NCBI GenBank assembly: GCA_973895155.1
Contig: OZ316892.1
Location: forward strand, 6,493,251-6,557,250
Source of the DNA: Marsupella aquatica
Lineage: Eukaryota; Plantae; Marchantiophyta
Reading direction: 5' to 3'
Length of the DNA: 64,000 nucleotides
Positions 21,546 through 62,328 of the stretch are shown here, piece by piece. A model generated the notes under the pieces. The model had not been told where the DNA came from and made no database searches. It was given only the letters and a program-made list of their open reading frames with translations. A program made the translations under genes and the position numbers. The first letter of the stretch is position 1. Each line of letters starts with the position of its first letter.

Positions 21546-21649
21546 TATGGAGGTATTCGCTGCATTCACTGCTAGACTATGGCATGCCATGTTAGTATGA
21601 TCCCACTCCCAACTAAATGAAACCGGACTGTACAGTATCTTCAAACCAT

Positions 21650-35608: not shown

Positions 35609-35629
35609 CACTAGTACATTTTGACCCAT

Positions 35630-38911: not shown

Positions 38912-41895
38912 TCAACACTTTCGAAGAAACCTAACATTCCACAATGTATTCATTCCTAACACATTCCGTAAGCAGAGTTGTTTCTCTTCTTTGTTGGGCA
39001 TTGGCAATGTTGCATCACTACAATACACTGCCTTAACTGATACTCGCACCCAAGGACTCTCAATCATGACATAATGAAATTTATCCTCTCCTGGTAACCC
39101 TGTCACTTCACCTCTAGCAACAACTGTAGAGCGATCCACAACGCTTCGTACTTCTACAGCATCTCCTTTTGAAAACTGCCACACAAAATTGTTAGGACAA
39201 AATATTGTCTTGTAGTACTGATTTGGGCATATCATCAATTTAAGAACATAAACCAACTGAAAACAAATTCACCTTTGCTGCTGGATTTGGGGAGAGAACT
39301 GGTCCTCGTTCACTAGGTGAGATAGTGATAGGGGTTGTTTTCTTGAATCTCTTTGAAGGCCTAGGTGGTGTAGCCTCTTGTTCCTGAATTGCATTTGACA
39401 CTATCTATTCATCTGTGATAGCAATCTCATCACTCTCACCATTACCAATGCTGCTTTGTACAATGCAAGGTTCTTGCAGTGCTCCCAAATTTGCTTCTCC
39501 CATACTTGGCTTTGGCTTCTACCTTGTTAAAGTATCTGATTTCTCTCGCTGTGATACAGGATTCTCCCCTGAAGAAGCTACCACAAAACCAAACAATGAA
39601 TGTTTAGAAAACTTCATTCCAAATTGAAAAATAAATTATTGCATATGTAACATGTTTAGAGTATAAGTTTGTATGTTCTTACCATCACCATCACTTGAGA
39701 AAGTAAGAGAACGTTTCCTGCTACTACCTTTAGGCTCAACCACCACCTTAGTAGCAATTGCATTTGATAATTGCATATGGAACTGATTCTGTTGATTTTG
39801 TGCAATGAAAGAAGTCATCATAGATGTCAAATTGTCCACTTTGAACTCAAGCTTGGTTAAATTCTCCACAGACTGTTCAAGCTTGAGTAATCAAGCTGGT
39901 TCCTCAATTGTAGTTTTCCTGGACAGTGGAGTCTACATACACAAACACACCATACAATGTCAATCATCAATAATAATTTGAACATCATGGATAACTTATA
40001 ATCAAAATTGAATATATATACAGGTTTTCATTACATACCGCTGATCCATGTGCAGATCCAATTCCAACAAAACTATTGCCTCGATGTTCACCACTGCCCA
40101 TAGATGGACTGATATGCACTGGGGGGACTGGACTACTAGACACAAGTTTTGATATAACAGGGCTTGTCAATCCTTTTGCTTTCTGGAAACACATAATCAC
40201 ATTCAAAGCAATTAGAATATTAATGAGAACTCATCATGTCATTGTTTACTCCTATACTAGATAAACACTTCAATTCAAATGACAATCTAGACCTGCAGTG
40301 AGATGGACCATCTGAAGATTCTTACCAATCTTTTTTCTGCTCCAGCAGCCCCTCCTCTTCCAAAATGCTCTTTGTTCACCACTTCTGCCCTCCTTGCTTT
40401 CATCACAGCACTCCTTGCAAGCAAAGCAGGACTATCAAAATGATCCACCAGTCGTGCCCATTTCAATGGGTCAACATATTGAGGTCCTGGTTTGGAGCGA
40501 TCACGTTTACATACATCCTTCCAATAAGTATTTAGTTTGTGACATTCTCTTTTCAATAACGTCCGACAGTGACTAATAAATTTCTTGTCAGACACTGACT
40601 GCTTATCTGGATACTCCCAATCTGCCTCCATCAATTTCTGCACATCCTCAATTATGTTTGGATCTTGTTTGTTCCAATCAGGTTCTGATACATCAAAAAG
40701 CCTCAAGACATTGGCACGTAGCTCCTCCATCCAATATGGTTTATTAGGATGAGAATCATCAATATCATTGTCATGAATCTGATAAAAACACCACAAATGA
40801 TAGTCATCAATATTGAGAATGAAACAAACACCCAATTGCTTCTGAGTACACAAACTGTAGGCCACAAATGTGAAATGTGCAATGAAAATCTTACCGTTAT
40901 CAATTTTCCCTTCTTATTGTCAGCCCTTCTTACACTACCGGTTCTCTGGAATTGTTTTTTGGCTTGCCTAGATTCCCTGCGTTGCTCTGTTGCAGTCTTT
41001 CTTCCCTCTACATACACAATGAACATCCAATATTGATCATCCACAATTGTAAAATGAGGGACAAGAAATATTACAATATAATAGGAGGACGCTTCATTGA
41101 ATTTGACTTACCTGAACCCTGACTGGATGTCACTACTGTAGAGTGTCCAGATTTCCCAATCGATGTTGATGGAACCACCACTATACACATGCAAACCACT
41201 GGAATTATGAATCCAACATTCATATAGATCAACATTGAAAAATACATTGAAAATCTTTGAAATTACTTACATTCAAATAGCTGGCCAGTCACAGGGTCTT
41301 TGTAACATTGCACCATGCCACTCATGGAAGGTCCAACCTTTGTAGGGGTTTCTTTTGCATCTGCCAAGCTCTTGGATGGAGGTTGCAGATGGACCTGTCC
41401 AGATCAAGTTAAAACCAATGTTATTAAACAGAATCACTACCAATGTCTATAGTTTCCTCATATTGTTGGTGAATGTAATAGGAATCTCACCTTGGATGAA
41501 CTTTGTGGTTTCTCATCTTCACTGTACTCAGCATCAGTGTCATAATCTGATTCAGAGCCCTCATCACCAGACTCTGCCATACTCACTGAGACAATTCTTG
41601 ATAGTCTGGAGCTCTGTCTCCTCTGTGTGGTAACCTCACTTCTAGGAGTTCGACGTGCACTTGTTTCCTTCTTGCGCCCTATGGTCTGTGTTGCACCCAA
41701 TCTACATCAGAGAATATCAATGAATGAATGACAAGTACCAACAACCAACTCATATTGCTGATGAGCAATATTAACACATCTTTGCACATTCAAAACAACA
41801 TGCAAGATTATACTCACATGAAATTGAAATTTTCTCCAAATATCTCCCTGAATTTTTTATTGTTGTCTGCTACCTTCTTATTTTGTTCCTCCTCA
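38912..41895 (-). CDS. Multi-exon TnpA-like protein of CACTA-A2
   Basis: Near-identical to 18561-21545; exon limits approximate. Confidence 0.78.
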
Positions 41896-41999
41896 TATGG
41901 AGGTATTCGCTGCATTCACTGCTAGACCATGGCATGCCATGTTAGTATGATCCCACTATCAACTAAATGAAACCGGACTGTACAGTATCTTCAAACCAT

Positions 42000-44900
42000 T
42001 CATTTCCTTTTATACTTTCTTTTTCCTTTGTCTATAGTACTTGGTCCAGGCTCCTGTCTAGTTATACAGGCTTCTGCCAACTCTATGTGAAACTTAGCAT
42101 TGTCATCCATAGTATCATGGAAATCAACTTCCATGTAATCACCCAACACCCTTGTAGATCTGGATTCCTTGTGGAGGATTGTCCTCCATGCAATCCCCTT
42201 ATCATTTGGGTAAAAAAACACCTGTTCTATCTGTCGTGGCAATACATAGTCCATTTTCTTGGAAGCACCCAGCTCCTTCTGAAAATTTACTTGCCACAAT
42301 CCAGACGTATCATATCTCATACTTGCTGTGGCTTTGGGAGTCCAAGATGGGTTTGCCCACCTTCCTTTGAAAAGGACCACTTCCTTTATCAGAGGCCCAT
42401 AGTTCAACACTAAGATGTCTGTCAACACCCCCACATATTGTACAAATTCATCTACTGTTGCCCCTGACCTAATGACCCGCTTCTTAGTGAATGTACAAGC
42501 CATCCCAGAATCAAAAGTCTTGAACCCAGATGAGTCACAATCAATCAAGGAACCTAGTGATGGAATGGTCCTCCAATGGTGCCCATAGGCTCTGCAGGCC
42601 CTGTACCGTAGTACCTTCAGACTAGGTGGTACACTATATGCTGCCAACACCATTCGTTCAAACTCATTCTCAAAATTATGCCTTCTAATTGTCACTTCAA
42701 ACCATTCTCTAAAAGGAGGCAACTCATCCAAATCAGAGGGATAAGGCACAGGATTCCTCCGATTTCCTGGATTCTTCATCCATTCTTTCCGGAAATCTGC
42801 TCTGTGCTTGGTAACTGCCTCCTTTTGATCATCATAAACCCTGCATGGCAAGAATGACAGTCAGCTCCTAGGCCCACACAATTTTTGCTCAAAACTCAAT
42901 TCTGTTTAATAATAAACAACAGAGAACCTATACCATGGTTCCACCAGCTCTTCATTCTCTAGTATGTAATGATGCATAGCTATCATATCATTCCACTCCA
43001 AGGTGATCTGTTTTCCAGCTCCTTCCAAGACAATGCCTGCAACACTAGGATTCTCCTCCAAGTCCCATGTTCTCATTCCTGTCCCCTTAACATCGATCAT
43101 GTATTCAGAAAGGAATCCTAAAGATTCATCTAGAAGGTAGCCTTCAGCCATAAAACCTCTGGACGTGCCTTGTTTCGAACATAACCCTTCAAGGTCTTTA
43201 GATATCTTTCTATTGGGTACATCCATCTAATGTTCACTGGACCACAGATGTCTAGTTCCTGAACCAGATGAATCAACAGATGGGTCATGACATCAAAGAA
43301 GCTTGGTGGGAAATGAATTTCCATAAGGCAGAGTGTGAATGCAACATCCATCATCACAGAGTCGTACTGTGAGGGATCCCAAACCTTGGCACAGATGGTA
43401 CGCCACACATTGCTCACTCTGGCTATGGCCAACCGAACACCTTCATCAAGTAATCCCATTGTTGCCAATGGAAGGATTTGTTGCATGAGGTGATGGAAAT
43501 CGTGAGATTTCAGCCCTGATAACTTCTTCCTAACTGTGACACATTTAGCCAGAGAACTGCTGAAACCAGTGGGCCCTTTAAAGGTCAACAATACCTCTAA
43601 GAACTTAGTCTTCTCTGTCTTACTGAGGCAGTATGGGGCTGGCGGCATGATCTTTGAATCTTTTTTAGGATCTGGATTTGGAACCAGCCACAAGTGTTCC
43701 CACACGTCCATGACTTTCATGTCTTCTCGAACAGAAGGAGTATCCTTTGTCCCCAAAATAGTGTGCACGATGTTGTGTGCAAGATTCTTCTCACAGTGCA
43801 TGGGATCCAAACAATGGTTGATGAGAAGTTTCTGCATTGGACGCACAGTTCAGTACAAACTAAGTTAGAATAAGAAATGTTACTCCTTGCTACTTAACAT
43901 TAATACACACTGAGGGATTCAGTATGGGAAACCAGATACTTACACTCCAGTACGGCAGCTTGTATAATCCAGTAACCCTCTTCACTCCATTCTTCTTTAC
44001 TGGAGAGTTTTCATCATCCAGCGCATTCCCTGGTTTCTTCTCCACATATTTAGCGGCCTTTTCTCCCCAACGTTTCCTATCAGAGCTGGACACTCTACAC
44101 GGTGCATCTCGTGCCTCTACCTCACCATTAAAGTATTTTGCCACTTCCTCTTTGCGAAAATAGTGCCTCTGTGGTAACCAGCGATGATGGCCAGCAAACA
44201 GTAACTTGCCCAACTGTTTTGAACCATGTGCCACACAATTTGGCCCACAAACCACACATCCTTTGTACCCTGCATGTTGTTGGCCAGAGACTAATCCATA
44301 TGCAGGATAATCATTGATTGTCCACAATACTGAAGCCCTTAGCTTGAACTCTTGCTGCAATCCTAGCCTTGGTAGAACATCAAAACAATCCACTCCTTCT
44401 GACCATAATGTCTCAAGATCATCCACAAGTGGAGCCATGTATACATCAAATTGTTCCTCGCTTACAGACACAGGACCTGGAATTAGAAGAGCCAGCATGA
44501 CAAAGAACTTCTTTGTGGAAAGCCAAGGAGGGATATTATAATTCAACAGCAGGATTGGCCATGTAGACCAGGCAGTAGAATTATTCCCAAATGGATTTAC
44601 CCCATCAAGTGCCAATCCCATTCGCACATTCCTTGGCTCAGCAGCAAAAGCAGGGTCGATCTCTGTGTCCACATGTTTCCATGCCTTTGAATCTGCTGGA
44701 TGTCGGACCATGTTGTCCTTGCTCTTGTTCTCATGATGCCAAGTCATTAGCTTAGATGTACCCTTAGTGGCATACAATCTCTTCAATCGAGGGATTATAG
44801 GGAAATATCTCAAGACCTTCACAGGTTGTAAAGAATTCCCCACTAACTTCATCTTTGGCTGATTACACTTGGAACAATTGTCCAACTCTGCAGTCTCATT

Positions 44901-45762
44901 TCTAAATAACATACATCCATTCTCACAGACTGGGATTCTCTCATAGTCTAAACCCAATTTTCTCAGTAATTGTTTTGCAGCATATAGGTTTTTAGGGAGA
45001 GTGTGCTCTGTTGGCATTCCATGCTCAGTCAACAAAGACAGCATGGCATTCACTTCCCGTGTTCGAGAACCTATTGTTGTGACAGATGTTTAAAAACAAC
45101 AACATGAAGGAAACTACATCTGTCTTACTGCCTGGAAATAAGGGTTTCATGGCTTCTTCTAAAGACCCTTGCAGAGGGACAGGATTTATAGGATGCCCTG
45201 CTGTAGGTGTGTCCTCAGCCCTGGTCTCAGCAAAGGGTGGATCTGCCTCATTCTCATCATTTTGAAACATTGAATCTATATCAAAAGGAGGATCATTATC
45301 CACATATTCGTCAGACTCTTCAGAAGCTCTTGCCAATGTCTCCTGAAGTAAAACTCTGACCTGCTCTTCAACATCTATTGATGGCTGGCCTGAGTGGAAT
45401 GCCTCTCGAGACATTCCTGCCCTCAGTGCCTCTGTACCAGAGTTACGGATGTAATTGGATCTCCACTCCTCATCAGAAGAGTCTTCACCCTCTCCTACCC
45501 ACACTCGATAGGCAGGGTAGCGGCCATATTTAAGAAGATATTGTCGACTGGTCTTTCGAGTAGTCTTAACAATCCCTTTGCATTCCATGCAAGAGCAATA
45601 TATTCTATGATCAGCACTACCAGAGCAAGCTGTCTGTTCCCGAGCCCATAAGTTATCATCACGACGTTGTATTCGACATGGATGGGAAAGAGGTAAACTT
45701 CTCAGGTTGTCTGCCTCTATTGTATGTGCAGTGTTATGTGACCCAGCCTGGCTAGAAGCCAT
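42000..45762 (-). pseudogene. TnpD transposase of CACTA-A2
   Basis: Same motifs as A1; frameshift near 45054 (shared with A1), 1-nt deletion near 43155, and a deletion damaging the splice donor near 42925. Confidence 0.95.
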
Positions 45763-46778
45763 GATTGTAGCACTACCTAATCAAAAACACAGTTGCACAT
45801 CTTTCTTCTGTGACATCTTGCAGAGCTCTAGACAACTCCAAAACCCTTCCATACCATCTTCTAGAGCGTCATGTGAAGCAAACATGTGCACAAGTGAAGA
45901 CTAGACATACATTTGAGGTACAGTACTCCAACTGAGGTAAAGGCAGCTCCCACTTTAGCCTTCATTGCCAATAGAATAGTACATGCATGCCAACAACAGG
46001 TAAACAGATGACATATTAGCAACTTGATCAGAAATTATTTACTTGGGTACGTTACCTAATCTCATTTCATATTGTAAGTGGCAATGGGTATTTGAAGGAG
46101 ACTTGAATTGTACAAATCAAAATGTCATCAGTTTACAAGACCAAAGAAAGGCCTACCTGAACCAGATTTAGGCCAAGGGTGTTCACAGTAGTCAGCAATC
46201 TCAGACCCTTCAAAATAGTGAGTACAATAAGAAACATTAATCATAATGTCCATCAATCCCCTCCTTCATTCTTTGACTTTTGAATACATTTGTTGAAAGT
46301 CCTCTTCAAATATATAGGCAATTTTTATTTGGGCAGGTACTAGAATAGATTCCACATCACAACATTTCATCATCCCCACACAAACCAGGATACATATGGA
46401 CAAGGGCCTGAAAGGGTTTCATGTAATCTACATAATTAAACATATAGTGTTTCTGTGCAGTAGTAAGAATGAAATACAGTCACTCAGTCTTCAAAATTAT
46501 CAAAAAGGAGAAAGTTCTAAGACCCGGGTTGAAGGAGTTGTTAAGGGTGTTGACCCGGGTTTAGAAAGGCAGTACTACAAAACTTGAGAGACATTACGTG
46601 AAGTTTGCCTTGTTATGCCCAAATCCCTCAGTCAAAGGGACAACAAGAATTTTAAGACCTTGGGTGGATTTTAGGTCTTGCCTCTTAAGGTCAGTGTGAT
46701 GTTTTTTTAGTTCTTTTGTTATGTATCTCCATTCAGGCTCTTCATATGTTTGCCATTGACAAAACAGTCATCATACAA

Positions 46779-47225
46779 TCAGAATTGATACTGGTCTTTC
46801 TCCACTAAGTGCTGCTCTACTCTAGGGCAAACAGTCTCAACCCCTGGTCCCAAGATTGGCTCATCATGGTGGAACATTATACAGGCACACCTCCTTTGCA
46901 GTCTAATGTGTCCATCCCGCCTATATATATCCCCAGGGCGCACTCGACATTTTGGGCAAAAATCCTCACAACTATGGATACAGGCAGAGTAGCAGATCTG
47001 CTGTGGTTGTACCACTCCATTATCGACTGCCACAATACAAAAACCTATGGGCAAGGGTGGAGCATCCAGAGTAATGGGCCGACTATACGTGTCTCTGTGT
47101 ACAGGCAAAAACTCCCATTGCATAGCAGAACTGGCAGGGACCAACCTCATTCCACTCAGCTTCAGGCGTAGCCTCTCAGCTCTACCTTCAAGGTCAGCTC
47201 CCAATCTGCTGCGCGTCCTTGGCAT
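46779..47225 (-). CDS. 148-aa Cys-rich cargo protein of unknown function (intact in A2)
   Basis: MPRTRS..CYSACIHSCEDFCPKC..CAC..C; same length in both A copies. Confidence 0.65.
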   Translation of the reverse strand: MPRTRSRLGADLEGRAERLRLKLSGMRLVPASSAMQWEFLPVHRDTYSRPITLDAPPLPIGFCIVAVDNGVVQPQQICYSACIHSCEDFCPKCRVRPGDIYRRDGHIRLQRRCACIMFHHDEPILGPGVETVCPRVEQHLVEKDQYQF

Positions 47226-47431
47226 TACTGTAACAAATACAAGAAGCAATAATTTATCCAACCCAAACACTCAATGAAATTCATGCAACAATTTAAGATT
47301 CAACTATTTCATACAATCAGATAGTCCATTAGATAGTGTAGTCCACTTCATACTATAATCAAACAATTTAGTCCACTTCATGAATACTTAATACTATGTC
47401 GTGTTTCTCTACACAACTGAAGGCTTATGAT

Positions 47432-48130
47432 CTATTTGAAATCATGAGGTGGCACATCAGAACCCTCTGGAATGACATGGCGATTGCAGTACACCATACG
47501 CCATGGACCAATATCCCAAGTTTCTCTACCCTTAACCCCTCTCTTCAGGTGTTTGTCTGCCTCTGGTCCTTCATCTCTGCACCACGCACGAGGGCACCTA
47601 CGACACTGGATAAATTCCCAGATGCCATCCCGATACTCCTTGCACACATCACAATAATGCCTTGGGCATATCAGAGCAGCGGGATGTGCATCTGAGTTCT
47701 CTGGATAAGTTATCAGAGGCAACTCGTTCGCCCTCAATATAGTCCGTAGACAACCCACATGGTAAAAGGAATAGCAATCGTCCTGTGCACACTGAATCAC
47801 AAGGGGCTCATCTGTAGTGGGTTTCACGGTTCGGCCAAGTGACCCACAAGCAAAGCAACAAGCTCGGTTCTGCTGACAGAGGTCACAGAGCCACTCCTTG
47901 TCCCAATCATGCCCTCTAGAAATGGCAATGCGTGTGCACTCAGGCCCATGGCCATCAGGCTCCTCAACATCCTGCCCATCAACTAAGTAATGAAAATGTC
48001 GACTGCAAGGCCCATCGCAGAACAAAACAGTACCTCCCTCATCACATTCAAAACAACAGGGGGGATCCATGCGAAGGTGCTCCTTATGGGCAAACTTGGG
48101 ATCCAACCAGGCAGCAGCAGCCCGTGCCAT
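47432..48130 (-). CDS. EDM2/NSD-type tandem PHD-finger protein (232 aa), cargo of CACTA-A2
   Basis: 22 of 232 residues differ from the A1 copy by my count; no indels or stops; predicted Zn ligands retained. Confidence 0.85.
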   Translation of the reverse strand: MARAAAAWLDPKFAHKEHLRMDPPCCFECDEGGTVLFCDGPCSRHFHYLVDGQDVEEPDGHGPECTRIAISRGHDWDKEWLCDLCQQNRACCFACGSLGRTVKPTTDEPLVIQCAQDDCYSFYHVGCLRTILRANELPLITYPENSDAHPAALICPRHYCDVCKEYRDGIWEFIQCRRCPRAWCRDEGPEADKHLKRGVKGRETWDIGPWRMVYCNRHVIPEGSDVPPHDFK

Positions 48131-51100
48131 GCTGAAGAAAATAAAATCTGCACAATTGCCTTCAACATCACTCCAAAGTCCATTCAAAAACCAAGAGACA
48201 AACACAAAGAAGGTAAGTGAAGTGTACTTACTCACAGAGCAGTTGAGCCAGCCCCAGTCGCACCTCCAACCAGCACAGACCTGTGGTTACCACACTCATC
48301 AGTCTCCCCAATATTTATTCCCCAATTGCCCCAATATTTATTCTCAGTCTAGCCAAACCAGCCTACAGGCCTACACCAGCTATTAAGTTTTCCCTAACGT
48401 CCCAACTGACAAAACAGCTCAGCCTCTGTTGCACTTAAACTAGAACAGAACATACATCTGAAAATATTCTGATCATCACCTCCAAACCTTCCGCTTTAAC
48501 AAACAAATCACAGCCGTCCGTACGTAGCTCTCAATCAATAAACATACAAACCCTGAGAGACACACCCTATCAAATTACTTTAGGAGAAGTAAATATACTC
48601 TACTGTAACTGAATTCTAGGTTTGACATGATTGTATGAATTTTAATGGGTATCCTGTTCAGGAGATCATTAGTTGAAGTGTTCTAAGCAGCTCCAATTCT
48701 CAAATACGCACCTAAGGCCTTAGCAGAATTAATAATTACAGGCTTGTTGCAAAAACTATAAGGCCAGACAGGATACCTTAAGGGTGAAAGGTTTGCGGAC
48801 AATCTGTAGAGAGCAGATTGCCTACAATCAAATCGAGACGCCCATAAACCCTGCACAACCACCACACAACAATTGCACATTGCTGACAGGAAATCACATG
48901 AAAGAATGCAGTATAACCAGAAGGGAAGAAGTATAATGCTTCTAAAATTAACGGACTTTGAAGAGCATAGCAGACCTCAGACATGATTTGCCGTTTGGTT
49001 CAGACAAAAATTAATGAGACAAGAGAGACAACAAGGTACCCGAACCTTGCAGCGGGAAGGGGAAAAAGGGACGCAATGGAGGAAAGAGGAGAAGATGGGC
49101 TTTCAAAAGAGAAAACACGACCGAGCAGGGTGAGACAAGCAAGACTTCATCAAAGGACAGAACGCTGGAGTATGAAATCCATGATTACTCTGTTTTTAGA
49201 TATATTATATTTTCAGAAGAATAAGGAAGCAAGGCCTAGTGGATCCACACTGTCTTAAAGGTACTAGCGGGCAATATACAAACATCCAATCCCAAGCCAA
49301 CAGATATAACATTTCTTGGCCAGCACAGACAGGAAGCTCGAGAGGAGCACAAAGCAAGCCGCACAGGGTGAGAGAGAGGCATGAACACAAAAACCTATAC
49401 AGACCAGAACGAAAGCTCCCTTCAAGCTGGGACTCTACTCTTGATTGATCGATGTTGCTGATACTAGCTAGTGCACTTTACTGAACTGAAAAAAACATTG
49501 ACAGCATCGGGCAGTGTAAGTGAAAATGAAAGCATTAAGAAGCAACAGTAGTCTCAGGGATTGAGGTGGGGTTTTAGGTAGCTTTGGTGCAGGAAAAAGT
49601 AAGGAGGGAATGCTAGGCATTTCCTAAGACCAGTAGCCCAATCAAGGTGATCAGAGCAATAAGTAAAATACAAACGGGGATACAAATGGCAAAGGCATGA
49701 CAAGAGAAAAGGGAATGGCCAAGGCATGACCACACGCAGCTCAAAGCCAAAGCAGAAATTCCAGAGCAAAGTCAAGAAGGACCAAAAATGATGTAGCGGT
49801 ACACACCAGATCACCCCAGATCACCCCAGATGCCTTCTACTTTTCCAATACCGCTGATGCAGACCCTAATGTCGAGCCCTCGCGCCTGCACACTTGATAC
49901 CCCCGATCAATTTCATACCATCACAAACGAGTACCGTATGCAATGTTCAAGAAGATGTTGCATCTGCAACCCAGGTTGAGACCATTTTCAGGGAGCGCAG
50001 ACGACAGCGCATGTTGATTTGACAGATAAGGGAGCAACATTGAAAGAAAAGCAAGCTGCATATTGAAGACTTAACATTGAAAGCTACCGTGGGAATACTC
50101 ACAAATCAGCAGCGGCCTCCAGTGCAATGCCTCCCACCCCCTCCACGTTCTCCTTCAAAGCCACGCTAAGGTCGACGCTACACACTACACTCACAGGAGA
50201 GAGATCGATCAAGGCAAAAATGCAAATCCGCAACCTTAGAGTACACTGTATGGAGAAAAAGAGCAATAGGGGAAGAAAAGCAAGGGAAGCAGACACAAAA
50301 GCATTAAGCAAAAGACAAACGGGGATGCCAAGCAGAAAGCATGATAGGAGAGAAGCGAATGGTTGAGGCATGACAAGACGCAGCTCAAAGCCAAAACAAA
50401 GAGGCATACATACCTTCAACCGGAAACTCTCTTTAAGCTCAAACACACAGAAGCTGCAGCAACTCGCAGCTTCCCCTAGCGCTCGATCACACCAACTCAC
50501 AACAATCTGTAGTTGCTCGCAGCAGTTTGCAGCAAGTCCCTAAACTCCCAGCAGCTTGCAGCTCCCACCAACACCTCTCAGCGGCTCCCAGCGAGTCCAA
50601 CAGCGCACCAGGAAATCTCCTGAGGAATGCAGGTCCGAGCTCGAGCTCGATCGTCAACAACTTACAGTGAAGCAAGGAACTTCCTTCACAGTCCTAAGGT
50701 GCAACTCGCGACTCTATTCTTGCTGCTTCGATCACAAAAGGTCCTTTCAGGTGAGCGCCCCTCCTTCCTGGTCGCCGTTGCACTGATTGCTGGCAGCTAG
50801 AGTTCCCTTCCACAATGACGGGAGTGTGCGTGTGCTTGAGGTGATCAGCGATGGTGGGCTGTACATAAGGGCAGCAGTAGGGAGTTCCCCCAAGAGTTAT
50901 GAGCCTTTCAGAAATCACGATGGCGGCAGCAAGTAGGAACGTAGGAGCTCGGTCCTAGGGCAGCTTCCCACTGCCCACAATAACAAAGTGCGACCCTCCT
51001 CCTCCACCCTAAACCGTAGTCCCAAGTTGCAGCTGAACTCCACAGCATCCGATTAGAAGGCCAGACTAAACTCCCGAGTTGATGAGTGAGTAAGTGCACT

Positions 51101-51914
51101 CTGCGTCGCAACGATAAACCCTTCGACAAACTGCGCAAAGGAGCAGGAAAACCTCAACATTCGATAAGCTCTTCGCAAAGTTCTTTGTGAAACAGGGAAT
51201 CCAATGAGCCGGGTGCTTCTAGCAGTTCCCGCCAGTGACAAAGGCAAGGGCCGGGGGATTGAGGGGATGACATGTGGACGATGGAGATTGCATCCAACTG
51301 CGACTATGAACGGGAAACTTCAACGGTCCAAGTGAAGGGGTTACTAGGGCCTTATTCCCCCCATAAAGGACTTAATTAAGTATGTGATGTCATTAGGGAG
51401 TGGAAAATGACTTTGCACCACCCATAACTATTTTTCTCCCCCAAAAGTGCAAAAATTACTAACACACCCTCTAGAGAAAAACAATTCCAAGAAGCCCCTT
51501 TGGGCAATCCATCAGCCATAAAGCATCTCAAATAATTGAAATGTGTGGCTAAGTTAACAGGAGGAGTTAATTGGCAGCCTAAAGGATATTTGGCGGTACC
51601 TTAACGGAGTTCTGGGCGTAATTTAGCAAAAGACATAATCTGCAATTTGGGCCCCTTTTTTCTTAACTGAAATGATGGAAACTTGGTACGGAGCAGTACA
51701 ATAAATCATCTAAATGAGAACTTACTCCAGAATATCTAACATAGATATAGTCAAGTGTGTTTGGTATACTAAGGGACCAAAAGCTATCGTGACTCTTTTG
51801 CCCTCATGACATATATGCAATGGTATGACCCCCATAAAGTGAAGTCTGCCCATATAATGACTCCAACATGGAAACAAAGTAACATAGACCAGATTAGGGT
51901 CCAGGGTTGAAGTG

Positions 51915-53725
51915 TACCCTATCCCGCACCATGTGGAGTGGGTAGCATCCCTAATGGCCGGCTCAGATCATGTATATTGTAAATAAGCCCCCAAAGGCCC
52001 CAAGGAGTCATATTGTCCATGGCATGCTTGACTGCCGCATTGACATCATCAATTTATGACTCATATTTGTGTCATTTGCTTAAATGACACCCCTCAGCAC
52101 TCCACAAATGACAAAAACCTTCAATCACATGCACAAATGACTCAAGATCCCTTACAAATGACCAAATGGGAGTGGTTTGCACTCCTTTGGACAAATGACT
52201 CCAAAGTCATACAACTTGGGAGTGTTTTGCCCAAAGTTGGGTGATGCCCTTCCATGATGCAAAATGTGTGCTTTAAAAAGTGTTGTGGAGGCCAAGTGGC
52301 ATAACTAGTGGCTCACGGTGTACAAGTACCCCATCCCGCACCATGTGGAGTGGGTAGCATCCCTAATGGCCGGCTACGATCATGTATATTGCGAATAATC
52401 CCCCAAAGGCCCCAAGGAGTCATATTGTCCATGGCATGCTTGACTGCCACATTGACATCATCAATTTATGACTCATATTTGTGTCATTTGCTTAAATGAC
52501 ACCCCTCGACACTCCACAAATGACAAAAACCTTCAATCACATGCACAAATGACTCAAGATCCCTTACAAATGACCAAATGGGAGTGGTTTGCACTCCTTT
52601 GGACAAATGACTCCAAAGTCATACAACTTGGGAGTGTTTTGCCCAAAGTTGGGTGATGCCCTTCCATGATGCAAAATGTGTGCTTTAAAAAGTGTTGTGG
52701 AGGCCAAGTGGCATAACTAGTGGCTCACGGTGTACAAGTACCCCATCCCGCACCATGTGGAGTGGGTAGCATCCCTAATGGCCGGCTACGATCACGTATA
52801 TTGCGAATAAGCCCCCAAAGGCCCCAAGGAGTCATATTGTCCATGGCATGCTTGACTGCCGCATTGACATCATCAATGACTCATATTTGTGTCATTTGCT
52901 TAAATGACACCCCTCAGCACTCCACAAATGACAAAAACCTTTAGTCAAGTGCACAAATGACTCTATATCCCTTGCAAATGACAAAATGCGAGTGGTTTGC
53001 ACCCCTTTGGGCAAATGACTCCAAAGTCATACAACTTGGGAGTGTTTTGCCCAAAGTTGGGCCATGCCCTTCCAAGGTGAAAAAGTTGGGTCATAAAAAC
53101 TATTGCGAGGTCAAATTGAGATAACTAGTGGCCCAGAGTTTAGGTGTACCCTACCCCGCTCCATGTGGAGTGGGTAGCATCCCTAATGCTGGGCTACAAT
53201 CATGGATATAGCCAATTGACCCCCGGAGGCCCCAAAGAGTCATATTGTCCATGGCATGCATGACTGCAACAGTGACATCATGAATGACCCATTTTTGTGT
53301 CATTTACATGAATGATGTCTCCCAGCACTTCCTAAATGACACAAACCCTTAGTCACGTGCACAAATGACTCTAGATCCCTTGCCAATGATTCACAATAGT
53401 GGTTTGCACCCCTTTGGGCAAATGACTCCAAAGTCATACAACTTGGGAGTGTTTTGCCCAAAGTTGGGTGATGCCCTTCCATGATGCAAAAGGTGTGTTT
53501 TAAAAAGTGTTGTGGAGGCCAAATGGCATAACCAGTGGCCCAGGTTTGTCAAGTACCCTATCCCGCACCATGTGAAGTGGGTATCATCCTTAATGGCCGG
53601 CCCCTATCACCAATGGGGTCAATCAGCCACCAAAGGCTCTTAAGAGTCATATTCTGCATGGCATACGTGACCACAACATTGACATCCCAAATGACATTTG
53701 CATAAATGACATCTAGCGGCACTTG
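51915..53725. repeat. ~408-412-bp subterminal tandem repeat (~4.4 copies)
   Basis: CCCGC.CCATGTG recurs near 51923, 52335, 52747, 53155 and 53562. Confidence 0.92.
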
Positions 53726-54626
53726 TCAAATGACTAGAAAGTTGAGTGAGAGCAAAAATGATTGGGAATCCTTTGCAAATAACATGAATAATATATTGGA
53801 AAAAATGACATGAGCAAATATAGGCATGTAGTATCTAAATTCTAAACCTTAAACCCTAGACCTATGCCCGAGAGTGTTATTTGGCAACCTTGCATGCCCC
53901 CATATAGACTCCAACATGTGAAATGTGAATACAGCTTAAGGAATGTAAACACTTCAGGAGTCCTTGGCATATATAGGAAAGATGTAATAAATGGGTGCAA
54001 GTATATATAAATATACATACTTATTAGAGATTATCAAGCCTTTAAGTTGTACATCAATTTAATGATGAGACTCACAACAAAAGAAGGCTTGTTAGGTCTC
54101 TAAATGTATTTCAAATCTAATATGTGAGTGCCACTAGTCTTTATATATACTACCATACGTTTTGGATGACTAATCATACCCTAAACCCTAAAACATATAC
54201 TAAACCATAAACCTCAAAATAGTCATATGTTGTTTATCATGTCATTTATCACTTTTGGTTTAAATGACTACTAACATTTTTAAACACTGATATTTGCATA
54301 TTTGATTTATTAGTCATTAGTCACCGTCGTCTGAAATGACTTCCCATATGTGAAACACTGATATGACAGAGTTTTTGTTAATTGTGTCATTCACAAAGAC
54401 TGTCCAAAATGACTACAACTCATGATTGCTGTCATTATAGCAGTCAAAGTCATTTGGCTCATTGGTTTAAATGACACTATTACAAGTATTAGTCATTTTT
54501 TGCACCCCGTCATTTTGGACAGTCATTTCAATGTCATTTATGTCATGTCATTTACATATTTTGTCATTTGAGCACATAAGTCATATGTGTCATAGTCATA
54601 AAAGGCCCCATTTTCTACTAGTGAAT

Positions 54627-55550
54627 GCCTTCGTGATGCTGGTTGGGGGATCTCCTAGTTGTGCTGCTATTGTCTCCCATTTTTGTAGTGCTGCATGTAG
54701 AGGGGCCATGTCCACTTCCCCTCCTTCGGAACGAACGACCTCTGCTAACCTGACTTCTTCTTGCCACTTTCGCGTTGCCTGCCAGGCTCGGACTTGTAGC
54801 TCTTCATCAAGCCACGCTGCCCAGACTTCAGGGAGAATTGAATCTGGGCATCCCTTCTCCTTGATCACCTCAGCTTCGCCTGGATCCTGCTTGAGGTAGG
54901 CTCACAGCTTGTCTCTCTCATGATTTCGCCGATCGCTTAGGTTCACTGATATCCTTTTGTTCAGAAACCTGTCATCCAAGAAATGCCCATTTGCAAATCT
55001 CTCTTTCACTTGCTCCCTGATGCTGAATTTCTCCCTCTCGGGCTGGGTGCCCCAGTACTGCGAAGGGTGGAAATTAGACCTTAGAACTTGCAACAATTGA
55101 CTGCAAAATAGATTCTAGCTTGAAGGTATTGGGGATCCTCCCTTGTTTAAGGCAAGCATAGGTCGCTTGGCCCTCTCCTCAGCTTTTTGCTTCTCCTCTT
55201 GAAGCTGTTTCTTCTCTGCAACCCTAGCTTCCTTTCTGAGCATTTTCTCTCGCTTCCTGGGAGAGAGGACATCCTGTGCAGCTGGCGCCGAAGCCCCTTT
55301 CTTCTCCTCTCTCCGCTTCTTCTTCTTCTCGTTCTCTGCCTCAACCCTAGCTGCCCATGCTCGTTCAGCCTCCTCCCTTGCTTTCTTGTGGGAGTCATCA
55401 ATCAAGAGTTGCATTAGCGGCACCACCTTGTCTGCATCCTCTGCCGAAAGTCCAGCCCGCAACTGAAACACCTCCCTCATGGTGTCTGAGAAAACCTGTG
55501 AAGGACCAGCTCCATCCCCACCACTTCCACTCTGCCCTCCATTCGCCATG
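54627..55550 (-). pseudogene. CACTA-B TnpA-like gene, 5' part (divergent from TnpD)
   Basis: Coiled-coil/Lys-rich N-terminus, then YWGTQ..VKERF..ISVNLSDRR..CPDSILPEVWAAWL, comparable to the A-family TnpA core; stops at 55115 and 54902. Confidence 0.65.
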
Positions 55551-56596
55551 GCCTCCCCCCGGTCCCCTCTAGCTTTGCTGTTCGACCTCGCTGCAAAAAC
55601 TAAAGAACATGCCAAATTTACCAACGAAAGAGTCTTGCGATTCGCGGCCCGACTATGTTGCCTTCGCATTATAGTCGGGTGCAACTTTTCTTTGTGACTT
55701 CCATTTTCGATGCTATAAATATGGGAACTTGTGTTACTTCAAACATCGGACATTGAATGGCAATTTCCCATACTTAAAACATCGGACCCCTCTTTGCAAA
55801 ACATCGGAAACTTACCAACTTTAATTTTCAGCATAGCTTTGATGTGCATTATATTATATGCCTTCAACCCATTGGATTATATTAGTTTAGGGTAAAAAAG
55901 ACATACACTAACATCTAATTTGCCATTTGTTTTCTACTCTTATTTGTAGCGGCAAAGTGGGAGGGGATGGAGGTCGTGCATGTAGTGGGAGATCGACCCC
56001 ACCAACGTTGTCAAAGCTCAATATTAGGCAACATTTTTTGGGGTAGTATGCATTATTTATTGTGGACATTTTCCGGTGCATGTTGTCTTTTTTTTATAGT
56101 TTTGGGATTCTAACATATCAACAATGTCTATTTAAGGCGTATGCAGTTTTGTTTTTGAAGGGGTCGTTGGGTTTAGGGTTTTGCAAACAATTAAATGCAT
56201 TATGCACCACGAGAGCCCATGCATCCGAAAGGTATGCTATGTCTTTGGAATTGGTTTATTGAAATCATTGCATATGTGTTGGTTTAAACTATAGTAGCCA
56301 CCCCATTTCAATGCATAGATGAGGTTTTGAATGTTTAGGGTTTAAAATGTTTGGGTTGGCAGTGAGTTCGGATATTGCCTCAAACTTCTAGTTTGACGCC
56401 AAGATCCTAGTAGGCACTACAAAGCACGGGTATCATACAAGTAAGTTCCATGACCCCCGCACATTATATGTACCTAGTCACTATGCTCTATTATATTTGC
56501 ATATGCACAACAAAATTTTGTAGACTTAGATGTTTTTTCATTCATAAAAACCCCATGATGACTAACTGAACCCCATCAATTGGCTTCATGTTACAG

Positions 56597-56821
56597 ATGT
56601 CGACTTCTGATAGTTCCATGTCAGATTCCGACTCCGACTCCTCCTCTGAGTCAGAGGGCGAGATTCATGTGCCTCCTCCTCCTCCACCTCCACTAGGGCC
56701 CATCCCTTGCTGGTGTGTGAGATGTAAGGGAATGGTTGTTCGCCAAACATACATCACTATTCAGCACATTGAGGACTATGGCAGACATGAGGGTGATTTG
56801 CCTGGGTATTTAGCGAGTCAG
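56597..56821 (+). CDS. CACTA-B TnpD exon 1: transposase-associated domain
   Basis: CWCVRCKG..IQHIEDYGRH matches CSCMECKG..RQHLLKYGRY of the A-family TnpD; ends CAG|GTACC in phase 0. Confidence 0.8.
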
Positions 56822-56970
56822 GTACCTTGTCCACACCTAATGCGCATCCCGGCCATCTGGTTGTTAGATTTTTATAGGTTTCACTATGTGTACATTTGTT
56901 TTGTAATGCATATGTAAGCATGTATTAATCTGGGTCTTAATTGCACTCTTCTTGGATATCTCATGAATAG

Positions 56971-57954
56971 GTGACACGTAGGCCTTCAACTCCACTACTC
57001 TCAAAAGAAGTGTGGATAGAGTCATTTTTGGCAACGGCAAAAAACATGCTTGCATCATCCTCTGCAGCCACGGCTCCAATTCCATCCGAGCCTACATTGA
57101 ATCTTCTTGAGAGTGGCCAGTGTCCACCTGAGAGGGTATTGGAGCCTATAGTTGAGCCTCATGAGGAGCCGCCTAGTCCACCAGTCAACCGGGTGCAGCC
57201 CAAACATGGTCAACCTACTAGGACACTACGCACAAGGCCACGGTCTCAAAGACGTAGACGACATTATGAGCCAATTGGTACAATAGAGCCTGGAGAGGAT
57301 GAACCTCAGGTTGGGAGGGCACCTAGAGGTGTAGATTGCATTATAGTTGAGGGCCGTTTTGGATTGTCATATGTCCATGGGAGGGCAGCTGAAATCTTGA
57401 AGGACTTCAGCTCTACAATTTTCAAATTTCCCTCTACCATTCCCTTGGAGCAACCGGTACACATATGGGGTTATTCGTGGATAATTAAACCCTCCTCTAT
57501 TGGACCTCACATTGGATATGGCTTATTTGCTGCCAAGGATATTTTGGTTCCTCAAAAACCTTGGCGGCGAGGGTTTGATGGGGTACATTTGTTCCCTTAC
57601 ATTGGTCCTGTATATTCCAGTAAGAATTGGAATATACTAGTGCGCCAACACCCGTCTTGGGCAGTGTATGCCCTTAGGATGGACTCAGACCCCGATGAGG
57701 TCTTCACAAGGCCTTGGCATTGTCGCATGATTGATGGTGATCCAGTGCGTAGTGACAACATAGCAGGTTACATCAATAGTACTCAAGGTAGAGGTAGACA
57801 GTTGGAGCCCAATGTAGAATGGGTTCAATGCTTTGGTCCACCACGAGAACCTTACTATGTAAAGCATATGGATGACCATATCATGACGGTAGCCATACGG
57901 GACATTAGAGCTGGTGAGGAGTTGTTGTGTGATTATGAATGGGAGGAACCCAAG
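56971..57954 (+). CDS. CACTA-B TnpD exon 2: Pro-rich linker plus SET domain
   Basis: IKPSSIG..GYGLFA.KDI; FPYIG; IDGD...SDNIAGYINS; PNVEW; AIRDIRAGEELLCDYEW; flanked by ATAG| and |GTTAAG, both phase 0. Confidence 0.88.
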
Positions 57955-58112
57955 GTTAAGATACGTCTTGAGGGTCCCCGATGACATGTACACCTATTTC
58001 ACTACACATGTGTATATATATTTGACTCTTCATTATCCACGACATTGTGTAATTATTTTGGATGGATCAATCAATAATAGTGTGATTTGTAATGTTGTTG
58101 CACATATGATAG

Positions 58113-61100
58113 GGCCGTTTTGTTGAGCCTGATTTTTCGGTGTTACCACGAGCTATGCGAGAACACCTTGTGGAGGCCATGGCCAATTGGCGCGAGCAAC
58201 ACCCAGACCACACACCACATGAGGAAGTAGATGGTCCACAAGACCGACTTGATGAGGAGAGAGCCATGGATGACCTGATGCATCAGTTTTATGACATAGG
58301 CAACGATGAGGGGGAAGAAGACATAGGCAACGATGAGGGGGAAGCTGTTCATCCACGGAGAAGGGCAATGACAAAGCAATGGGAGGAGGCTCAAGGGCAT
58401 GCACGAACAAGGATTTATGAGGGTTCTCGCTTATCACGTCTTTCCTCGATTCTGTTGTTGTTGAACTTGCAACAAAGACATGGGGCAAGCAACCTCCTAT
58501 TAGATGATCTATTTAGGACTTTGCATGATTGCATATTGCCAGAAGGGAACAACATGCCAGGGTCTTGGAAGGAGGCAAAGAAGGTATTGAAGTCCATTGG
58601 CCTGAATGAAGTCATTCATGCATGCAAGAATGATTGTGTTCTGTTTTGGGGGGAGCACGCCAATGCAATTACATGCCCTATTTGTGATAGCCCTCGATTT
58701 CGTGGGGACACACTAACCAAGAGGGTACCACATAAGGTGATGAGGCATTTCCCTCTTATTCCTCGCTTGCAGCATCAATATCGATGTGCTGAGTTGGCTG
58801 AGCACATGGTATGGCATGCACAACACCGTTCAGATCAGACATATGACCCTACTGCAGTCACGCGAATGATGGTTGATTCTCCCATGAACAGATTTGTGGA
58901 GGAGACATGGAGTGAGTTTAGAACTGACCCTCGACATGTTAGACTGGGATTGGCATCAGATGGCATTAGTCCATTTGCACTTGCGGGCAAGGCCAAGCCG
59001 TACTCAGTTTGGCCGGTGGTTCTTACAAACTACAACATTCCACCGTGGATGGCCATGAAAAAAGGACATCTACTTCTTTCCATGATCATCCCTGGTCCGA
59101 AGCAAGTTAAGAAAATTGATGTGTACTTCATTGATCAAGGAGCTACAAGAACTTTGGGCAGGAGTGGATTGTTATGATGGACGTCGGGTTACAAATGGCT
59201 TAGCTCGCCAATTTATGCTCAAGGGAATTCTTATGTGGACCATCCATGACCTTCCTGGTATGTACTCATCTTAGCTACTAGCCTTGGACATGTCTACAAA
59301 TTTATGTTGGGTGTACACTAATATACACAAGTGCATACTTGCATTATTTTACCAATAGTTATACATATATATATATATATATTTATTTATTTATTCTATA
59401 AATAATCCTAACTTGTAACTACAACATTTGGGGTTTTGTAGGATTTGGCTACGTGTCTGGTTTGCAAACTCAAGGATATAGAGCTTGCCCATCATGTGGA
59501 CCAGATTTGGAAGGGGTTGCACGACCAAAGTCCAAAACTTTGCGGAAGATTGTTTACCTTGGTCATACAAAGTATCTTCCACATGACCATCCATGGAGGT
59601 CTGACCCATTTCTGTATGACACAGATGAGGGCCAACCTGGCACTCGACCTCAACCTGTGAGAAAAGACCCACAATATTGGAAACAGGTATGGGAGAGAGT
59701 GCAAGACCCAGATGACCCATTGTTGTTGCCTAGATGTGGGATGAGCCGCTTATCAGCTTTGTCACAATTGCCATACTGGTCTCATATGCCCATCAACCAT
59801 TTGTTTGACCCTATGCACATTGAGGGGAATGTTGGCCGTTCTTTGATCCGACATCTATATGGTGAGAAGGACAACAACTGGAGAGAAAGTTGTGAGGAAA
59901 TGGGCATGCATGGCCTTTTGGGTTTTTGGCCATCATTGGAACCCCCAGGTGATCCTCAAACTGTCCACCCTCCTTGGGTGCTGACAAGAGAGGAACGAAC
60001 AGAGTTTCGCCGACGCATAGGATCAATGAGGTTTCCCACTGGCTATGGAGCAAATCTTTGCAAGGCATTTGGGGGAGCAGACTCTCCACTGTGGCCATCA
60101 TATTTGAAGACGCATGACTTCCATCGTTTGTTGCAGCATATCATTCCAGTGGCTATTATTGGGTTGGGTAGTGATGATTTGCGTGATGCCATTTGGTCTT
60201 TGGGTTGGCTTTTGAGATGGGTCTGTCAAAAGGAGGTAAGGGAAGATGAAATCCTTGCTATGGAAATATTTGGGGTGGAGGTGGTGTGTAAATTGGAAAG
60301 GGCACTTCCTCCTTCCCTTTTTGATGGCCAAGTTCATTTTCTGATTCACTTAGTGCATGAGGTGGCACTTGCAGGCCCAGTACATTGCCGTTGGATGTAT
60401 TGGGTTGAGCGTTACATGGGAGTCATGAAATCCTATGTTACAAATCGTGCTAGGGTGGAAGGTAGCATTGCGGAGCGTCATCTTGGAGCTGAAAGTATGT
60501 TCTATTGTACTAACATACTTGCCACACTTGACCCAAATGCACCAAGGGGGTGGATAGATGAGGCAACAAGGGAAGCCGATTATGAGGATGATAGGTTGAC
60601 CGGTGCATTGGGAGAACGAGTGTTAGGCTCTGCCGAGCATACACAACTCACAACATTTATGTTGTACAACTCTCCAGATGATGTAGAGGGATGGACCAAC
60701 TTTTATGAGGAGGAGAAGCAACAAAGCAGGAGACCACGTATTTTCCCAAAGTTCCTTCCGTACATGAGGTCCAAATTGGAGCATATTGACACCATGTTGA
60801 GAGAGGAACAACCAATAGCACAGTTTCCAATGGTGACAGATCGTCTTCGTACCATGGTTCATGGACCTTTACTTGTGGTGTCTACTCGGACAGCAATGTG
60901 GTCAAAGGGAAGGCATTTTCGAGTAAAACGCCTTGATGATAAGAGGGCAGCAACACAAGATTGTGGGATTATGGGTTGGTTTACCCAGGATTCACAAAGT
61001 AGCACATCTGACAGGAACCCCATCCGTTCATCCGTGGCCCACTATGGCAAGATAGAGGAATCTCGGGGGTTTCACTTCCACAAAAATGGCATATCACGTG

Positions 61101-61697
61101 CGACAAAGGATAGGGTCATATTATTGGTTCTAAGGGAAGACTTAAGAATTTTTGTAGAAGAACAATAGGGTCTTTTAAATTCAATTTTGAGACTTATAAG
61201 AATATTAGGGTCTTTTTAATCCAATTTTTAGAATATTCCAAGAATATTCCAACTTTATAGGGGTTAAAAAATTACAAAAATTTCTTACATTTTAGGGGGT
61301 CCAAGGCCTAAAAACGTCGCAGGCGATGGGGAGGTCCCCATATAGTGAGACCCCCGAGAGAGGAATCCCTACCATCAAATATCATGCTCAAGTTACTATG
61401 GAGGAGGTGGTGTTAAAGTGCAAATGGTTCAAGATGAACCTTGTTGGGCACAATAGGACTTGTGAAGAGGATCCCTGTGGTTTTACACGGTTGAAGACAG
61501 CTAGTGTTGTTAGCTCAAATTCGAGAACCTCGGACCCATTTGCATTCCCACATCATCTTGAGCAATGCTTCTACTTGCCATATCCTGATGATCCAGATTG
61601 GTCCATTGTGATGCCCTACATACCTCGGTCACGCTCTATCATCCAAGAGAAACCAGATGTAGTTGTTTTGGAACTTGTAGACCCAATTGACACATAG
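58113..61697 (+). pseudogene. CACTA-B TnpD exons 3-4 (Transposase_21, DUF4218, DUF4216)
   Basis: IHACKNDCVLF; RHVRLGLASDGISPF; WTIHDLPG|FG (intron 59258-59441); DPMHIEGN; LKTHDFH; GPVHCRWMYWVERY; KCKWF..DPF; frameshift near 59130 and MITE insertion. Confidence 0.95.
61062..61358. mobile_element. 297-bp MITE, copy 3
   Basis: Same TIRs; perfect 8-bp TSD AGAGGAAT (61054-61 and 61359-66). Confidence 0.97.
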
Positions 61698-61829
61698 TTC
61701 ACGCATACACCTAGACCTATGACCTTTTATGTTTTATTGCCTCTAGGCTCTCGGATTATATCATATTATGTTGTTGTTAATCAATCCTTGTAATAAACAG
61801 AGTGATTGAACACATCTTTCCCATACTAT

Positions 61830-62305
61830 TTCCGATGTCCAAAGCATTGGAAATTAATTGCACATGACTAAATGACTATCCTAGTTAGAGTCCGATAAAC
61901 AAACATTCGGAAACAACATGTCCGATGCAACAGTCATCGCACATTATTTCCCATTCTCACAGCATCGGATCCTATATCCGAAACTCTCATCATCGGACCC
62001 CCATCGGATTCCATGTCCGTTGCTTTCAGAAACGGACCACTTCCGATCACAAATCCTCCGCACATTATTTTCGTTGCAATACCCATCGGATATATGAAAA
62101 TATTTTTTGTTGGAGGGGTCCGATGTAATGTGTTACGGATACGATTCGTTGGGTTCCGCATCGGAGACGTTTCCGTAGCTGTTATTATCGGATATAACAA
62201 TGTCCGAACCCGAGAGTATGGCATATTGCGATGCGCTGAGTATGGGATGGTCCGATGTTCCAAGTATGGGATGCGGATTCTTCGCAAAAATGGAGCATCG
62301 GAAGT
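61830..62305. repeat. CACTA-B right subterminal TCCGAT/ATCGGA motif field
   Basis: Dense TCCGA/TCGGA motifs ending at the TIR. Confidence 0.8.
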
Positions 62306-62328
62306 GAGCATAATATGTAGTAGTGGTT

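Follow-up and report, generated by a model that had tools for sequence, protein, structure and literature searches.

Within the genome of the liverwort Marsupella aquatica, a frame encoding a SET domain lies between the first coding exon and the transposase body of a CACTA transposon, which raises the question of which proteins this gene gives rise to, whether the SET domain is an enzyme and what it would do for a mobile element. The stretch of DNA analysed here, termed the window, comprises 64,000 nucleotides of contig OZ316892.1 (assembly GCA_973895155.1), and all coordinates are counted from its first nucleotide. An earlier, sequence-only reading had described the SET exon as a symmetric cassette, from which three products could be spliced: a canonical TAD-TnpD transposase, a fusion that includes SET, and a transposase-free TAD-SET protein. 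It had also suggested that the active site is unusual and the ancestry possibly non-plant.

The SET-carrying CACTA element and its neighbours

The element that hosts the SET exon is a CACTA (En/Spm) transposon (Table 1). Its left end, CACTAGTACA, starts with CACTA, its right end is CACTACTACA, with terminal repeats that are imperfect beyond the CACTA core, and a 3-bp TSD, GTT, is found on either side. Subterminal repeats of the form TCCGA/TCGGA occur in both orientations, 15 per end region, and reach 23-31 per kb near the element ends versus 1 per kb in coding DNA. The domain order typical of CACTA TnpD, TAD-Transposase_21-DUF4218-DUF4216 (PMC8978399), is present in a frame that is broken here, with DUF4216 (30.2 bits) slightly below its Pfam cut-off of 30.6. 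Besides an intron at 59258-59441, TnpD contains a frameshift at approximately 59127-59130 and an inserted MITE; TnpD paralogues without this MITE exist. With a broken TnpD and a 16.7-kb insertion of another element, the present copy is unable to transpose on its own.

The MITE belongs to a 297-bp family which, given its 8-bp TSD, we take to be hAT-like. Further copies in the window lie at 14283-14580 and 25609-25905; the copies are 94-98% alike, and two of the three have an exact 8-bp TSD. At 58596-58613, TnpD shows an in-frame loss, its Y-x-x-IHAC stretch being one residue shorter than in the transposases of the neighbouring CACTA and of Riccia. The divergent, minus-strand remnant of the SET-carrying element yielded no Pfam match and no usable Atlas match. 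As a candidate TnpA homologue it was compared with the 40290-40913 frame of the neighbouring CACTA, a frame that is presumably TnpA-like, and the idea was dropped for want of a significant match, 387 of 1000 shuffles scoring as high.

The nested CACTA is of a different family, a second copy of which occupies 17618-33024 (TSD AGG; 97.5% alike over 7.2 kb). NSD-like PHD finger frames, above the Pfam cut-off for PHD_NSD, are located at 47432-48286 and 27583-28314, that is, in both copies, and this second CACTA family therefore carries chromatin-reader domains. Tandem 12-nt-based repeats near the ends of the PHD-carrying elements (17939-18415 and 38219-38635), which contain a long DTLN/DTMY frame, are probably subterminal repeats and not protein. 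The PHD-carrying copy at 17618-33024 splits another element (16403-17623 and 33003-35249), presumably P-element-like, with a weak match to a TNP-like GTP-binding insertion (E=0.0075); the SET-carrying CACTA starts (35609) shortly past the end of this split element (35249). Among the plus-strand frames at 12069-15575 are several unassigned ORFs and one with an RNase H1 N-terminal domain (Pfam, E=2.4e-12).

Table 1. Features of the SET-carrying CACTA gene and of the element around it (window coordinates; a slash marks an exon-intron boundary).
Feature	Position	Strand	Description
Host element, CACTA (En/Spm)	35609..62325	.	~10 kb own DNA
Nested second CACTA, different family	37898..54623	-	16.7 kb, TSD AAT, own TAD-TnpD, NSD-like PHD fingers
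Divergent gene remnant of SET-carrying element	54624..55549	-	In-frame stop near 54902, cut by nested element
Coding exon 1	56597..56821	+	225 nt, 75 aa; Ser/acidic stretch, poly-Pro, TAD
Intron 1a (predicted)	56822..56970	+	Phase 0
SET exon	56971..57984	+	Pro/Arg-rich linker, SET fold ~57415-57960, short coding tail, own stop
GYINS motif	57766..57780	+	Column of the canonical RFINH motif
GEELLCDY with catalytic Tyr	57913..57936	+	Motif reading
Donor GTTAAG of the sequence-only reading	57955..57960	+	AAG/GTTAAG, phase 0; Val codon of tail
AT-rich spacer (30% GC)	57985..58112	+	Putative 3' UTR of TAD-SET and 3' intron end; ends in acceptor ATGATAG
TnpD transposase body	58113..61697	+	Transposase_21, DUF4218, DUF4216 (Pfam)
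MITE in TnpD	61062..61358	.	297 bp, 8-bp TSD AGAGGAAT

Exon phases and a probable choice of 3' ends

Exon 1 encodes the TAD, a zinc-finger-like CxCxxC...H arrangement, and ends in the phase-0 donor CAG/GTACCT. On its own it has no Pfam TAD match. A TAD profile built from exon 1 and seven homologous segments recovers the TAD of the neighbouring CACTA, which Pfam confirms, with E=1.2e-8, and that of its second copy with 6.6e-9; the next match has E=0.33. The intron that follows is found at the same position and in the same phase in metagenome locus L003, and its donor and acceptor are matched in L001. The SET frame then runs from 56971 to a TGA at 57982-84 and contains a Pfam SET domain (E=3.7e-8, its 34.2 bits exceeding the cut-off of 22.4). 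The TnpD frame begins, in phase 0, at 58113, right after the AG that ends at 58112. The frames of exon 1, SET and TnpD thus join in phase 0, as had been read from the sequence, and in this copy both ends of the SET exon have the symmetry of a cassette.

Two of the three envisaged products agree with the anatomy that is conserved beyond this copy. Skipping of the SET exon would give TAD-TnpD, in keeping with the conserved TAD donor and acceptors, and reading through the GT at 57955 to the stop at 57984 would give a transposase-free TAD-SET protein of 412 aa, close to the predicted length of about 410 aa.

The third product, a TAD-SET-TnpD fusion which would methylate chromatin at excision and insertion sites, requires splicing from the donor at 57955. 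A GT does follow AAG there in phase 0, as one of nine GT dinucleotides between 57860 and the stop, and a near-identical copy retains it. In the proteins of relatives such a donor can be traced, since a phase-0 GT after the catalytic Tyr requires a Val codon in the read-through tail. Among relatives scoring at least 150 bits, all 40 tails stop within 35 aa past the Tyr (median 6; some of these ends may be contig ends), and Val occurs in 7 of them versus 15.3 expected by chance, which makes the donor impossible in the other 33; in all 74 short tails, the count is 16 versus 27.4 expected. The tail count leaves out 12 cluster duplicates, and the genomic context is known for a minority of the 40. 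Since chance alone would put a Val codon into some 15 of 40 tails of this kind, the phase-0 GT of the window is not beyond chance. The tail of the Calypogeia relative has Val codons, and a donor is possible there.

Genomic loci and paralogues of the same organisms point in the same direction. Of four metagenome loci found (L001-L004, L004 being partial), the three full ones show a TAD exon followed by a SET frame that ends in a stop of its own; none has a phase-0 GT between Tyr and stop. In L003, the TAD, SET and TnpD-like exons are all in phase 0, and an acceptor leads into a TnpD exon start like that of the window. Paralogues were compared in contigs of four runs (two studies) holding the window, an ungapped reading being assumed. 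Diverged paralogues depart from the alignment after 57944; in three of the four runs, the consensus has TT or AT in place of the window's GT, with a similar coding tail, DAPK-L/M-S/A-I/L-R, so that the tail is conserved as protein beyond the 57955 GT. In two of the four runs, paralogues keep the acceptor ATGATAG in the same register.

Gene models that join SET to transposase do exist. Fourteen fetched models, 11 of them named Riccia sorocarpa, fuse SET pieces to TnpD-type sequence, and three, the Riccia models P0068, P0070 and P0100, reach Transposase_21, P0068 with its Tyr kept. Across the 14, the junctions are inconsistent: there are eight different join points and 13 of the 14 models lose the Tyr, for which reason they look like a choice of the gene finder. 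These models stand outside the tail count, because the Tyr motif is missing or the score is below 150 bits. Because the 57955 donor is conserved neither in relatives nor in full loci nor in paralogues, inclusion of SET in a TnpD fusion is not a feature of the element family, and the three-product cassette appears improbable; judged from these sequences, the three-way fusion is likely a peculiarity of this copy.

Some observations concern individual copies and the regions after the stop. A near-identical copy (runs X3 and X4; 57980-58103) has lost the 57982 stop together with 29 spacer bases, and by hand reading its frame still stops at 58107, ahead of the TnpD exon. A contig of run X3 passes straight from the TAD exon into the middle part of the SET exon, skipping 932 bases (56746-57679), and is likely a deletion derivative. 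No AATAAA was found past the SET stop. TGTA occurs four times in the window's spacer versus 0.96 expected (p=0.016); of four post-stop regions, those of the window and L003 are enriched in it, and those of L001 and L002 are not. No junction of exon 1 with exon 3 is among the 15 joints listed of 130, in runs of unrecorded kind.

Conservation of the TAD donor, of both acceptors and of the SET stop therefore indicates a choice between two 3' ends and not a cassette, the SET exon being likely a terminal exon. On these grounds, one transcript probably yields two predicted splice forms, TAD-SET or TAD-TnpD.

The sequence-only reading had further stressed that TAD-SET is intact beside a disrupted TnpD. 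The frames and the lesions are as it described them. Given two to three lesions over 3.1 kb of TnpD, however, a 1.24-kb TAD-SET frame would stay intact by chance with a probability of 0.30-0.45. Intactness is for this reason no sign of selection in this copy, nor of domestication, an explanation that was rejected.

The SET family, its age and its active site

Relatives of the SET domain were collected by word-based searches, which gave 4, 27 and 23 of them, and by searching 1.84 billion cluster representatives (50% identity clusters) with a profile. The latter places 164 clusters in the family at E<=0.001 (150 of the 164 being listed) and 48 at E<=1e-30. Among 30 proteins looked up, the named members come from Riccia sorocarpa, Calypogeia fissa, Adiantum nelumboides and Ginkgo biloba. 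The closest named protein, P0001 of the leafy liverwort Calypogeia fissa, with 76% identity over the core, is itself a TAD-SET protein ending at a stop. The TAD profile matches 14 of the 186 fetched proteins, five of the 14 being rows on which it was trained.

A FastTree tree (unrooted, with SH-like support only) was built from the 88 of 178 rows that had at least 80% of the domain, and it contains members of the SET family and two weak outgroup rows only, plant SDG sequences having come up in none of the searches. In this tree, the window's SET groups with P0001 of Calypogeia. Rows linked to TAD or TnpD are present in five of the six parts of a 54-row clade (support 90 in this unrooted tree), and the link between SET and CACTA is therefore old and not a recent capture. 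Rows from the fern, from Ginkgo and two from Calypogeia fall outside this clade. Distant branches without a TAD match are P0138, P0143 and P0151 (Adiantum nelumboides), P0142 (Ginkgo Gb_21150), and P0077 and P0090 (Calypogeia); the model of P0143 is a fusion with sequence of an LTR retrotransposon (SH3_Tf2-1).

These data bear on a further possibility, namely that a fragment of a host SET gene was captured recently and neutrally, in the style of Pack-CACTA elements, with no role for the transposon. CACTA elements do capture gene fragments (PMC8978399), and no link to a transposon is known for the distant members in Ginkgo, Adiantum and Calypogeia. Against this, SET exons with 35-43% identity occupy the same place between TAD and TnpD in Riccia, in Calypogeia and in metagenome loci, the 164 clusters at 50% identity share conserved active-site columns, and the canonical NHS motif is found in a single one of the 186 fetched proteins, at E=5e-5. 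By these comparisons a recent neutral capture appears largely refuted, and we regard it as highly improbable.

The active site itself is unusual, as the sequence-only reading had noticed. The canonical motif is written RFINHxCxPN (PMC3980110), and the window's GYINS lines up with the NH found in a canonical SET (the NHS protein), which confirms the motif column. The variant is shared throughout the family: of 123 motifs among the 186 fetched proteins, 119 have Ser after Asn/Gln and none has His, the His of the canonical motif being absent from the family, and in 10 motifs the Asn is replaced by Gln. The tyrosine of ELxxDY, which that reading had seen retained, is present in 78 of 78 members having both motifs, with a small residue (Cys/Ala/Thr/Ile/Val/Ser) two positions before it in 77 of the 78. 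The GxG motif, Y95 (the right neighbour column of the Tyr of the YxG motif), Y113, N149/S150, E197 and Y202 are at least 90% conserved in at least one alignment; with G62, G64, E197 and Y202, both the N-terminal GxG and the C-terminal ELxxxY of SET domains are in place.

Plant SDG classes (SUVH, ASHH, ATX, CLF) are characterized by pre-SET, AWS or CXC flanks, a post-SET Cys cluster, and SRA or PHD domains. Here, SET is the only Pfam domain in the frame, with no flanking pre-SET, post-SET or reader domain, and PHROGs and NCBIfam gave no match for it. Cysteines are absent after the Tyr in the window, and none of 78 tails has two or more within its first 35 aa, so that the lack of a post-SET Cys cluster noted for this copy extends to the family. 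The proposed dissimilarity to SUVH, ASHH and CLF proteins stands as a matter of domain content, and by this measure the family falls outside the conventional plant SET classes.

A structure model of the SET exon was computed from 21 sequences and shows a full SET fold (mean pLDDT 83.8). The best solved match is SET8 (Z 12.3, rmsd 3.0, 132 aligned), further matches being Set1 (Z 12.0, rmsd 2.9, 126 aligned), EZH2 (Z 11.8, rmsd 3.1, 136 aligned) and PRDM5 (Z 11.0, rmsd 2.6, 122 aligned); SET8, Set1, EZH2 and NSD2 tie within one Z unit. Foldseek gives TM values of 0.42-0.48 with SETs of human, bacterial and plant origin, and its best viral matches reach 0.41-0.47. SET8/PR-Set7, Set1/MLL, EZH2, PRDM and giant-virus SETs accordingly share the fold of the present domain.

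By sequence, broad profiles single out LegAS4 of Legionella as the best solved match, over the whole domain, at E=1e-7 (next 9e-5). The suspicion that this match is an artefact of including the outgroup P0162 was rejected, as it persists without P0162 at E=4e-7 (next 0.003). LegAS4 is absent among the 30 matches listed for the close-family profile A2, and a single-sequence PDB search gave weak matches only, the best at E=0.09 (cereblon, by chance, and the C-terminal motif of SET8). By structure, LegAS4 ranks tenth (Z 10.7, rmsd 2.7, 129 aligned). LegAS4/RomA resembles the plant family in that the motif His is replaced and no post-SET Cys is seen in the aligned part; the two share only 22-26% identity, and LegAS4/RomA has an ankyrin reader domain, whereas the plant family has the TAD, extra insertions and a short aromatic tail. 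LegAS4 is reported to methylate H3K14, aided by its ankyrin domain (10.64898/2026.05.29.728679).

Since an active solved SET also lacks the His, its loss lowers only the membership of the family in canonical groups; and since LegAS4, the closest solved relative by profile, is active without it, activity is plausible. We regard it as fairly likely that the enzyme acts on lysines with SAM. Under the Phe/Tyr-switch rule, a small residue near the Tyr allows more than one methyl group, and the small residue two positions before the Tyr would, judged from the motif, do so here.

Alternatively, TAD-SET may be made and not write histone marks, being instead a catalytically weak or dead scaffold or reader, or a methylator of non-histone proteins (e.g. 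TnpD), that through the shared TAD would regulate the transposase or be its dominant-negative partner. The loss of the SAM-binding motif's His in all members, the replacement of its Asn by Gln in one subgroup and the bare SET frame would fit such a role. In addition, many PR/SET domains without the His have no shown activity, and other PRDMs may need partners or be scaffolds, according to a source that also describes the role of the SET catalytic Tyr (PMC4919437). Set against this are the Tyr kept in every member having both motifs, the retention of GxG and Y113 over a deep tree, and the activity of the His-less LegAS4, and we consider a non-writing TAD-SET unlikely.

With respect to ancestry, an Atlas feature search placed giant-virus (Nucleocytoviricota) and haptophyte SET clusters first (0.96-0.97), a ranking that is no sign of transfer. 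Pattern-limited searches of viral contigs found no relative with A2 (42 candidate stretches) or P0162 (10), nor did such a search of prokaryote genomes with A2 (40 candidate stretches). Sequence identities to solved and viral SETs are 14-29% and the scores tie, so that no donor can be named. A non-plant ancestry may hold in view of the profile match to the bacterial LegAS4 and of the giant-virus clusters, but the fold scores do not separate SET8, Set1, EZH2 and NSD2. A bolder account holds that an ancient bryophyte CACTA lineage took up a non-plant SET from a giant virus, a protist or a bacterial effector and wired it to the transposase's zinc-finger exon, and that the element would thereby write its own histone mark (e.g. 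H3K14 methylation) against silencing, with relatives possibly domesticated in ferns and Ginkgo; we judge this account to be rather unlikely.

Proposed role and other SET-carrying transposons

The reading that we favour, with somewhat better than even confidence, is that of a bryophyte-type CACTA with an intact, ancient SET exon, in which a shared exon 1 is spliced either to SET or to TnpD and the accessory product is a putative zinc-finger-tipped lysine methyltransferase. One promoter and the shared TAD exon would serve either protein: joined to the SET exon, exon 1 would lead to SET's own stop and hence to TAD-SET, and joined past it, to TAD-TnpD. The TAD, with its CxCxxC...H pattern, would bind zinc.

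The known anti-silencing factors of plant transposons, such as VANC and TnpA, are DNA-binding regulators. Here, the TAD may bring the enzyme to the ends of the element or to TnpD, where TAD-SET would methylate nearby histones and so keep the element expressed, the role that TnpA has in maize and Arabidopsis; we put this forward tentatively, as a possibility that falls somewhat short of even. The closest parallel is Spm3 of Arabidopsis, in which TnpD and the anti-silencing TnpA are described as products of one alternatively spliced gene (10.64898/2026.08.24.746577, PMC13547354). With maize En/Spm and Arabidopsis EN/SPM3 and EN/SPM7, the present element shares CACTA ends, a 3-bp TSD, subterminal repeats and the TnpD domain order, and the likeness proposed is that one gene gives a transposase and an accessory protein. 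In contrast to En/Spm, the accessory product here would be a SET enzyme and not the DNA-binding protein TnpA; its SET part is encoded ahead of the transposase body, and the coding TAD exon is common to both products. Within the SET-carrying element, no TnpA-like gene was identified by Pfam, Atlas or pairwise comparison. Angiosperm CACTA elements are reported to gain Peptidase_C48 or Transposase_24, the word SET not occurring in that account (PMC8978399).

SET-transposase proximity is also known from SETMAR/Metnase, a domesticated host gene encoding an obligate SET-transposase fusion. The likeness lies in a SET domain adjoining a transposase; here, by contrast, the family is multi-copy and mobile, and SET usually ends before the transposase. 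More generally, SET occurs in host-transposase fusions (PMC8616336).

As cargo of DNA transposons, SET genes have been described in HarbingerS and MuDR elements of Phytophthora (PMC12730594) and as a separate accessory gene in the red-algal Plavaka element PAG2 of the EnSpm superfamily, together with a DNA methylase (10.1101/2025.02.11.637652), and they are also reported in Helitrons. Common to HarbingerS, MuDR, Helitrons and Plavaka is SET as cargo with a presumed anti-silencing role; the available parts of these accounts of oomycete elements, Helitrons and Plavaka report no functional test (PMC12730594; 10.1101/2025.02.11.637652). Compared by description only, HarbingerS, MuDR and Plavaka, in oomycetes and red algae, have SET as an accessory gene of its own, whereas the present SET is one of the exons of a transposase gene in a land-plant CACTA. 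No description of such an exon was found in the literature, and Repbase Reports, subscription journals or bioRxiv supplements may hold one.

The feature is real and old, a variant of SET-carrying transposons, of which the exon-sharing land-plant form is what is new. Its SET domain belongs to a family without annotation, which numbers at least 164 clusters and has a His-to-Ser variant of the active site. H3K27me3 is reported to mark transposons in bryophytes as well (10.1101/2022.10.24.513474). If the bolder, improbable account given above were true, land plants would possess a transposon-encoded, self-targeting chromatin writer, setting a histone mark not otherwise put to such use in plants. 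As a multi-copy land-plant family whose SET exon shares the zinc finger of the transposase, these elements offer a small, single-domain candidate for a chromatin-writing transposon.
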